Source: Nemertoderma westbladi (taxonomy: Eukaryota; Animalia; Xenacoelomorpha). From it: a stretch of DNA of 64,000 bases. The translations under genes and the position numbers were made by a program. The notes beneath the pieces are model-generated. The model searched no databases and was not told where the DNA came from. It worked only from the letters and a program-made list of their open reading frames with translations. Below, one piece after another: positions 1 through 6,748 of the stretch (its first letter is position 1; every line of letters begins with the position of its first letter). Where the stretch lies: assembly GCA_032718475.1 (NCBI GenBank), contig JAUCBJ010002288.1:12375-76374 (forward strand), written 5' to 3'.

Positions 1-3000
1 AATGTATCTGTACCTATTTGCTTTACAGATCCTTAGCCTACTCCCACAGTCAATGTATCTGTACCTATTTGCTTTACAGGCCCTTAGCCTACACCCACAG
101 TCAATGTATCTGTACCTATTTGCTTTACAGGACTTAGCCTACACCCACAGTCAATGTATCTGTACCTATTTGCTTTACAGGTCCTTAGCATACACCCACA
201 GTCAATGTATCTGTCCTATTTGCTTTACAGGACTTAGCCTACACCCACAGTCAATGTATCTGTACCTATTTGCTTTACAGGTCCTTAGCATACACCCACA
301 GTCAATGTATCTGTACCTATTTGCTTTACAGATCCTTAGCCTACACCCACAGTCAAGGTATCTGTACCTATTTGCTTTACAGATCCTTAGCCTACACCCA
401 CAGTCAAGGTATCTGTACCTATTTGCTTTACAGATCCTTAGCCTACACCCACATTCAATGTATCTGTCCTATTTGCTTTACAGGACTTAGCCTACACCCA
501 CAGTCAATGTATCTGTACCTATTTGCTTTACAGGACTTAGCCTACACCCACAGTCAATGTATCTGTACCTATTTGCTTTACAGGTCCTTAGCATACACCC
601 ACAGTCAATGTATCTGTCCTATTTGCTTTACAGGACTTAGCCTACACCCACAGTCAATGTATCTGTACCTATTTGCTTTACAGGTCCTTAGCATACACCC
701 ACAGTCAATGTATCTGTACCTATTTGCTTTACAGATCCTTAGCCTACACCCACAGTCAAGGTATCTGTACCTATTTGCTTTACAGATCCTTAGCCTACAC
801 CCACAGTCAAGGTATCTGTACCTATTTGCTTTACAGATCCTTAGCCTACACCCACATTCAATGTATCTGTCCTATTTGCTTTACAGGACTTAGCCTACAC
901 CCACAGTCAAGGTATCTGTACCTATTTGCTTTACAGATCCTTAGCCTACACCCACAGTCAAGGTATCTGTACCTATTTGCTTTACAGATCCTTAGCCTAC
1001 ACCCACATTCAATGTATCTGTCCTATTTGCTTTACAGGACTTAGCCTACACCCACAGTCAATGTATCTGTACCTATTTGCTTTACAGGACTTAGCCTACA
1101 CCCACAGTCAATGTATCTGTACCTATTTGCTTTACAGGTCCTTAGCATACACCCACAGTCAATGTATCTGTCCTATTTGCTTTACAGGACTTAGCCTACA
1201 CCCACAGTCAATGTATCTGTACCTATTTGCTTTACAGGTCCTTAGCATACACCCACAGTCAATGTATCTGTACCTATTTGCTTTACAGATCCTTAGCCTA
1301 CACCCACAGTCAAGGTATCTGTACCTATTTGCTTTACAGATCCTTAGCCTACACCCACAGTCAAGGTATCTGTACCTATTTGCTTTTCAGGTCCTTAGCC
1401 TACACCCACAGCCAATGTATCTGCCCTATTTGCTTTTCAGGTCCTTAGCCTACACCCACAGTCAATGTATCTGTCCTATTTGCTTTTCAGGTCCTTAGCC
1501 TACACCCACAGTCAATGTATCTGTACCTATTTGCTTTACAGATCCTTAGCCTACACCCACAGTCAAGGTATCTGTACCTATTTGCTTTTCAGGTCCTTAG
1601 CCTACACCCACAGCCAATGTATCTGTCCTATTTGCTTTTCAGGTCCTTAGCCTACACCCACAGTCAATGTATCTGTCCTATTTGCTTTTCAGGTCCTTAG
1701 CCTACACCCACAGCCACAGTCAATGTATCTGTCCTATTTGCTTTACAGGACTTAGCCTACACCCACAGTCAATGTAGCTGTACCTATTTGCTTTACAGGT
1801 CCTTAGCCTACACCCACAGTCAATGTATCTGTCCTATTTGCTTTTCAGGTCCTTAGCCTACACCCACAGCCACAGTCAATGTATCTGTCCTATTTGCTTT
1901 ACAGGACTTAGCCTACACCCACAGTCAATGTAGCTGTACCTATTTGCTTTACAGGTCCTTAGCCTACTCCCACAGTCAATGTAGCTGTACCTATTTGCTT
2001 TACAGGCCCTTAGCCTACACCCACAGTCAATGTAGCTGTACCAGTACCTATTTGCTTTACAGGTCCTTAGCCTACTCCCACAGTTAATGTAGCTGTACCT
2101 ATTTGCTTTACAGGTCCTTAGCCTACACCCACAGTCAATGTATCTGTCCTATTTGCTTTACAGGCCCTTAGCCTACACCCACAGTCAATGTATCTGTCCT
2201 ATTTGCTTTACAGGCCCTTAGCCTACACCCACAGTCAATGTAGCTGTACCAGTACCTATTTGCTTTACAGGTCCTTAGCCTACTCCCACAGTTAATGTAG
2301 CTGTACCTATTTGCTTTACAGGTCCTTAGCCTACACCCACAGTCAATGTAGCTGTACCAGTACCTATTTGCTTTACAGGTCCTTAGCCTACTCCCACAGT
2401 TAATGTAGCTGTACCTATTTGCTTTACAGGTCCTTAGCCTACACCCACAGTCAATGTATCTGTCCTATTTGCTTTTCAGGTCCTTAGCCTACACCCACAG
2501 CCACAGTCAATGTATCTGTCCTATTTGCTTTACAGGACTTAGCCTACACCCACAGTCAATGTAGCTGTACCTATTTGCTTTACAGGTCCTTAGCTTACAC
2601 CCACAGTCAATGTATCTGTCCTATTTGCTTTACAGGCCCTTAGCCTACACCCACAGTCAATGTATCTGTACCTATTTGCTTTACAGGTCCTTAGCCTACT
2701 CCCACAGTTAATGTAGCTGTACCTATTTGCTTTACAGGTCCTTAGCCTACTCCCACAGTCAATGTAGCTGTACCTATTTGCTTTACAGGTCCTTAGCCTA
2801 CACCCACAGTCAATGTATCTGTACCTATTTGCTTTACAGGTCCTTAGCCTACTCCCACAGTTAATGTAGCTGTACCTATTTGCTTTACAGGTCCTTAGCC
2901 TACTCCCACAGTCAATGTAGCTGTACCTATTTGCTTTACAGGTCCTTAGCCTACACCCACAGTCAATGTATCTGTACCTATTTGCTTTACAGGTCCTTAG

Positions 3001-6000: not shown

Positions 6001-6748
6001 TCCTTAGCCTACACCCACAGTCAATGTAGCTGTACCTATTTGCTTTACAGGTCCTTAGCCTACACCCACAGTCAATGTATGTGTACCTATTTGCTTTACA
6101 GGTCCTTAGCCTACACCCACAGTCAATGTAGCTGTACCTATTTGCTTTACAGGTCCTTAGCCTACACCCACAGCCAATGTAGCTGTACCTATTTGCTTTA
6201 CAGGTCCTTAGCTTACACCCACAGTCAATGTAGCTGTACCTATTTGCTTTACAGGTCCTTAGCCTGCACCCACAGGCAATGTAGCTGTACCTATTTGCTT
6301 TACAGGTCCTTAGCCTGCACCCACAGTCAATGTAGCTGTACCTATTTGCTTTACAGGTCCTTAGCATACACCCACAGTCAATGTAGCTGTACCTATTTGC
6401 TTTACAGGTCCTTAGCCTACACCCACAGTCAATGTAGCTGTACCTATTTGCTTTACAGGTCCTTAGCCTACACCCACAGTCAATGTAGCTGTACCTATTT
6501 GCTTTACAGGTCCTTAGCCTACACCCACAGTCAATGTAGCTGTACCTATTTGCTTTACAGGTCCTTAGCCTGCACCCACAGTCAATGTAGCTGTACCTAT
6601 TTGCTTTACAGGTCCTTAGCATACACCCACAGTCAATGTAGCTGTACCTATTTGCTTTACAGGTCCTTAGCATACACCCACAGTCAATGTATCTGTACCT
6701 ATTTGCTTTACAGGTCCTTAGCATACACCCACAGTCAAGGCATCTGTC
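1..6748 (+). repeat. ~51-bp tandem array (about 130 units in window, open at left edge) that runs into the GSK3 exon
   Basis: Unit GTCAATGTA(T/G)CTGTACCTATTTGCTTTACAGGTCCTTAGCCTACACCCACA with 50, 51, 56 and 57 bp variants. A 403-bp higher-order period is visible near the left end. The last unit continues into ...[14 protein letters not shown]. Confidence 0.97.

Follow-up and report, generated by a model that had tools for sequence, protein, structure and literature searches.

The DNA analysed here, which we call the window, is a 64,000-nucleotide stretch of the Nemertoderma westbladi genome, and its left part carries a GSK3 gene on the forward strand. Exon A of this gene (6714..6928) begins in phase 2 within the codon of Arg167 (human numbering), ends in phase 1 in an I-D codon pair and matches residues 168 to 236 of human GSK3B (E 2.8e-39). 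It is followed by exon B (10238..10431) and exon C (10832..11018). A spliced contig of 2,552 nt and depth 805 from run X4 leads from an upstream exon, ending in YVKLYMYQLFR, directly to position 6714 and then joins exons A, B and C at GT..AG borders; over exon A it does not differ by a single letter. The locus can therefore be rejected as a pseudogene, and the spliced GSK3 transcript, whose absence the initial annotation had named as fatal to its interpretation, is indeed made. A fourth exon, D (15079..15311), is the predicted last coding exon up to the stop codon, based on in-frame translation from an acceptor at 15078 and not on reads. Four runs contain the locus, none of them recorded as RNA. 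We read X4 as RNA because the exon-exon joined contig is present in X4 and absent as such from X1, X2 and X3; X4 is a single run from one study, labelled 'DNA?' with no library record, and its RNA nature is deduced from the GT..AG joints. X4 also contains a second GSK3 sequence over 6730-6928 (793 nt, depth 20, with 39 differences in 199 letters), which has SLAYT and lacks AG|GT at the Arg codon. It is not among the pieces listed for X1 and X2, and it represents either a paralogue or another organism in the sample.

The intron in front of exon A is occupied, up to the left edge of the window, by a minisatellite. Tandem Repeats Finder (TRF) reports a single array at 1-6747 with period 51, 131.2 copies and 90% matches, which is intronic up to 6713 and is skipped in the spliced contig. 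The array runs past the left edge, and both the 131 copies and the 6.7 kb are thus minimum values. Each unit consists of an acceptor-like stretch up to an AG, followed by approximately the first 25 letters of exon A, and the final partial copy is the beginning of exon A itself. All 109 units that were compared ungapped match these 25 exon letters at 21 to 25 positions, a comparison that leaves out 21 units of the GACT type. This agrees with the initial annotation, which had proposed about 130 tandem copies of the gene's own exon sequence, the last of them forming the start of the real kinase exon. The 130 AG| anchors delimit 129 intervals: 63 of 51 bp, 45 of 50 bp, 10 of 56 bp, 8 of 57 bp and one each of 49, 55 and 102 bp, the last being two units with one anchor missed (131 anchors are found with a widened pattern). 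AG|GT stands at 85 of the 131 junctions, in line with the earlier count of most units, and GT is retained in only 4 of the leftmost 22. Read-through of the entire array was likewise considered and rejected, as was said before us, because of frameshifts and because every acceptor left of 5847 leads to a stop before the exon. That statement does not extend to the last 17 full units (5847..6713), which are all 51 bp long, in frame with exon A and free of stops.

Unit variants are clustered along the array. We distinguished 50 unit types, which recur in repeated blocks with exact internal matches of up to 498 nt, indicating concerted turnover inside the cluster; these blocks and matches would be the outcome of slippage or unequal crossover. 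One variant, with TGTAG and hence an extra upstream AG, accounts for 47 of the 131 units. It had been interpreted as a decayed ancestral acceptor, which we cannot uphold: it occurs in none of the leftmost 22 units, is absent from the functional last unit and looks derived. The L-Y-x-Y register proposed for the TGTAG units does not hold either, as the real upstream codons do not fit it. At 358-1568, nine units keep a donor-like AAG|GTATCT where the others have AATG, and these would define pseudo-exons of 26 nt. The array is not an artefact of long reads or assembly, because short-read contigs contain the unit. Contigs of the DNA runs X1 to X3, the first two of which may be the window's own source, carry it at summed depths of hundreds to thousands, compared to 14 to 29 on nearby single-copy stretches. 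Variant depths differ between X1 and X2 (950 versus 124 for a one-letter deletion at 6716), and summed contig depth is not a copy number.

The functional 3' splice site has its AG at 6712-6713. The X4 contig begins to match the window at 6711, and its unmatched part ahead of that point encodes YVKLYMYQLF; this places the intron in phase 2 of the Arg167 codon, at an AG|GT, and makes the last AG of the array the one used. The reading frame across the spliced junction is unbroken, where GSK3 homologues read LYMYQLFRSLAY. The intron thus sits within the Arg codon, the array is spliced out and the protein is left intact, as was originally proposed. Exon definition is the probable reason why the last AG is used, since it is the acceptor nearest to a real donor (215 nt). 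Of the 17 acceptors immediately preceding the functional one, 14 carry TGTAG; the extra upstream AG in these neighbours, absent from the last acceptor, may aid the choice, or it may only reflect array ends escaping homogenisation. The only repeat contig in X4 is 81 nt long with a depth of 15. Among the loose contig ends listed, a list one row short of complete that also excludes contigs running over the start of the stretch, none leads into the array from unique sequence, which has no bearing on the donor. Contigs drop rare forms, and for that reason the X4 depths only hint that internal acceptors are rarely used.

Other repeats lie close by. The donor of exon A is part of an exact two-copy duplication of 22 bp (6917..6960), made up of 12 exon and 10 intron letters, and the transcript uses the first donor, at 6929. 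Exon A thus shows junction duplications at both ends. The last intron contains a minisatellite of 183 copies of 18 bp (11681..14990). A junction origin was considered for this array as well and rejected, since only two overlapping 9-mers are shared with exon A.

The acceptor half of the unit shows some likeness to the upstream exon. In the last unit, the half-unit 6690..6713 aligns to the last 20 nt of that exon with a 4-nt gap: unit TATCTGTACC and transcript TATATGTACC agree at 12 of 14 letters without a gap, followed by the gap and then the end. This ungapped match was reached by 18 of 3,000 shuffles. In addition, the unit break sits where the G-I-C letters of exon A resemble the Y-M-Y letters of the upstream exon, 47 nt apart in the transcript. 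Both the resemblance and the microhomology had been noticed before, and both were found again, the resemblance with modest significance. The identity is lopsided: the downstream exon is matched at 21 to 25 of 25 letters, the upstream exon at about 17 of 20 and with a gap in addition.

Anchored scores of the 130 units range from 9 to 20, the last unit scoring 16, the closest variant 20 and the commonest 12. A score of 16 is attained by 8 of 354 pseudo-acceptors, 94 of 6,000 simulated junction duplications and 260 to 484 of 4,000 shuffles, and a score of 20 by 0 of 354, 7 of 6,000 and 35 to 55 of 4,000, respectively. In the profile test the last unit gave 10/354 and 26-38/1500 with the real codons; the closest variant gave 0-5/354 and 1-14/1500 (0/354 and 2-3/1500 with the real codons) and the commonest 44/354 and 273/1500, which is not significant. 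Overall, p is about 0.001-0.014 for the closest variant, which is limited to 2 of 131 units and was selected as the best, 0.02-0.12 for the last unit and 0.12-0.36 for the commonest. When the upstream codons were recoded synonymously, 216 of 576 and 117 of 576 codings scored as high as the real ones, and 4 of 29 and 3 of 29 foreign GSK3 sequences matched as well. The three other real acceptors of this GSK3 gene scored 8, 11 and 13 against the same upstream exon. The repeat contig of X4, which comes from a different sample, has no gap, ends in TTTTCAG and fits the closest variant, so this variant is not only a rare outlier. Taken together, the acceptor half appears to resemble the upstream exon modestly above the level of pyrimidine-rich acceptors, which is suggestive but not decisive. 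For the same reason, the caution voiced by the initial annotation, that a pyrimidine tract gives L, F and Y codons by chance, still stands.

The position of the intron is unusual. In human GSK3B the intron lies before L160. In a set of 120 short open reading frames, which mostly reflect single genomic exons, 119 continue across R|S and the remaining one begins a residue earlier; 16 of the 120 have unrelated letters before L160. R|S is also unbroken in all 42 GSK3-like metagenome loci, five of which have introns a few codons upstream. These come from the 46 of 80 loci examined (L038, L041, L044 and L045 were dropped as not clearly GSK3, and the 34 loci L047-L080, mostly of low identity or short, were left out). 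A representative search added 135 proteins, 134 of which have the anchor motif; 117 are continuous by pattern, and two of the other 17 break at R|S. The break in P0486 was rejected as an intron because P0502 and P0503, which fall in the same cluster, show no interruption. In P0438, a gene model of GSK3 from a chytrid, unrelated residues of pyrimidine type extend to the F-R that precedes SLAY, which may reflect an intron that arose independently at this site or close to it, or a faulty model. The continuity of R|S in nearly all of the distant GSK3 genes examined bears out what was first said of this position. It suggests that an intron at R|S is not ancestral for GSK3 broadly, and the position looks lineage-specific, the samples, which favour exons carrying a start codon, being too distant to date its gain. 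The SLAYT variant was present in 0 of 360 proteins, and the exact 25-nt junction pattern had no match in metagenome contigs. The search brought up no close relative: the best matches of exon C have 77 to 78% identity, the named ones being molluscs, hemichordates and a nemertean (up to 77%).

Two classes of known systems can be compared with this array. In amphioxus, 'mirage' minisatellites have been described in BflGb6, BflGb9, Adh3, TnC and PGBD5 (PMC3087553, PMC3902484). In the excerpts available of these reports, the mirages are like the GSK3 array in having tandem units that span an intron end and an exon start, with many copies keeping AG or GT. They are also like the GSK3 locus in that the authentic site is spliced normally and both acceptor and donor ends have been copied. 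By structure the GSK3 array is a mirage, with boundary-spanning units, use of the authentic site and concerted turnover. The initial annotation had missed this class, which accounts for the array without any intron gain. The copy numbers are far apart, at least 131 units over 6.7 kb compared to the 3 to 6 units given for BflGb6 and 3 for PGBD5 in the text available. Two further differences from the amphioxus cases as described there are the apparently new position of the GSK3 intron and the likeness of the 'intronic' half of its unit to the upstream exon. The second class is intron gain by duplication of an exon segment containing AGGT (the Rogers model), with ATP2A1 as an example (PMC3265369; reviewed in PMC3443670) and multi-copy 24-bp duplications in fission yeast (SPOG_01682, SOCG_00815), as cited in PMC4974935. 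According to the passages at hand, the mechanism has been demonstrated in cells with ATP2A2, with 6 to 16% splicing. GSK3 has two features of this class, AG|GT at the spliced junction and an unchanged protein, and shares with the cases described an AG|GT within a codon of a conserved protein, an unchanged peptide and an intron with some resemblance to flanking exons. It differs in that the likeness to the upstream exon is only partial, with the donor end outside the window, and in scale: the multi-copy cases in the cited portions have 2 to 4 duplicates, versus more than 130 here. Duplications across a junction that multiply acceptors, and can create introns, are also known from potato RdRp, where the duplication that gave rise to an intron straddles an intron-exon boundary (PMC4974935), and from human internal tandem repeats at exon-intron boundaries (PMC2812944), so far as the sections available describe them. 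The potato duplicate yields an extra intron through a cryptic donor, whereas the GSK3 contig is spliced without an extra exon.

We lean slightly towards a reading in which the intron was born by exonic duplication according to the Rogers model and its junction was amplified later as a minisatellite. Two similar 7-mers, lying in the Y-M-Y codons 20 nt ahead of the junction and in the G-I-C codons 28 nt beyond it, would have allowed slippage that doubled 47 nt of exon around AG|GT, and splicing from the GT of one copy to the AG of the other would have defined a small intron. The acceptor copy would then have been improved by four extra letters in the pyrimidine tract, lengthening the unit from 47 to 51 nt, and by a change of AAGG to AATG, through which a competing AG was lost together with a cryptic AAG|GTAT donor that nine units still have. 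Finally, unequal crossover or slippage would have multiplied and homogenised the unit. The AG|GT junction, the lineage-specific-looking position and the likeness of the acceptor half to the upstream exon are suggestive of such an origin. Several points argue against it. GTCCTT is a poor donor, and GT is kept in so few of the leftmost units (4 of 22). A length of 47 nt is below the minimum of about 60 nt cited for human cells, and the duplication would have been a frameshift until spliced. A plain junction duplication took place at the other end of exon A (6917-6960). Furthermore, the commonest unit is not significant, the recoding test is negative and the closest variant is rare. How probable we hold this and the other readings of the origin to be is a matter of judgement and was not computed.

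The strongest competitor, possible although we doubt it, is that the intron already existed, having been gained in another way, and that a segment made up of its last 17 nt and 34 nt of exon A was duplicated and then amplified. It is equally doubtful, on our judgement, that the likeness to the upstream exon is then due to chance, that exon ending in T-rich L, F and Y codons and CAG. Such an origin would place the array in an established class that is built alike and spliced normally. It is kept alive by the two-copy duplication at the donor of exon A, and the unrelated 18-bp array in the last intron fits it as well, as do the weak results for the commonest unit, the negative recoding test and other acceptors scoring up to 13. 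It requires three coincidences, namely the AG|GT junction (one of the gene's three other junctions has AG|GT), the unusual intron position and a similarity with p of about 0.001-0.06 that continues across the unit break.

The stricter form of the duplication origin, in which the whole multi-kilobase intron derives from exon, has the first copy's GT and the last copy's AG as its ends and is identical with the minisatellite, seems rather unlikely to us. If it were true, a 47-nt duplication would have been amplified more than 130-fold in an essential kinase gene, and each internal AG|GT would be a possible point of re-splicing. Still less probable is that foreign DNA entered at the Arg codon through break repair or transposition; in the same scenario, held to be just as improbable, about 20 nt of the upstream exon would have been duplicated at the 3' end and become the acceptor, with amplification of the junction later. 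This would explain the likeness to the upstream exon without GTCC as a donor. Direct repeats of 4 to 30 bp near intron borders have been reported in the accessible part of PMC11782384, and transposon remains are abundant in the window. No inserted element is visible in the window, however, and the insertion leaves unexplained why the unit break coincides exactly with the point at which exon A's 7-mer matches the beginning of the upstream-like stretch. Finally, it is highly improbable that the array is functional, with alternative acceptors tuning GSK3 levels by adding in-frame modules of 17 residues or by shifting the frame, and no less so that the AG|GT units serve as ratchet points for recursive splicing: the open frame of the last 17 units, the regeneration of GT at 85 of 131 junctions and the repeat contig in X4 would fit, but the spliced contig crosses the junction in one piece at depth 805 versus 15 for the repeat contig (with the proviso that contigs drop rare forms), inserts would land in the kinase core and variants turn over in blocks, as in a neutral minisatellite.

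For most newly gained introns the source is untraceable, according to the part of PMC4974935 available. If the donor end confirms the duplication origin that we favour, GSK3, a highly conserved kinase, would offer an intron that came from the exons on either side of it. It would also join Rogers-type intron birth with mirage minisatellites, which so far have been kept apart or only proposed together; in the amphioxus papers, as far as their available text goes, mirages were proposed as a route to new introns (PMC3087553, PMC3902484). Our literature search, with subscription papers and supplements outside its scope, returned no report of this GSK3 intron. However it arose, the locus offers a natural test of acceptor choice, one site being selected from more than 130 that are nearly identical and of which 17 are in frame.

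The rest of the window contains several other repeated or mobile sequences. A 2.4-kb segment with the 5' part of an OATP transporter gene is present at 36682-39120 and 60946-63388 with 99.3% identity, representing either a recent duplication or a haplotype or assembly duplicate; further OATP pieces lie at 35300-35779 and 19697-20386 on the minus strand. Pieces of a Pao-type peptidase and an integrase zinc-binding domain (25893-27393), a reverse transcriptase open reading frame (31565-33073) and a 1,667-codon open reading frame with DUF1759 (46027-51027) are retrotransposon remains. The sequence at 42278-43516 recurs at 54105-55343 with 99.8% identity.
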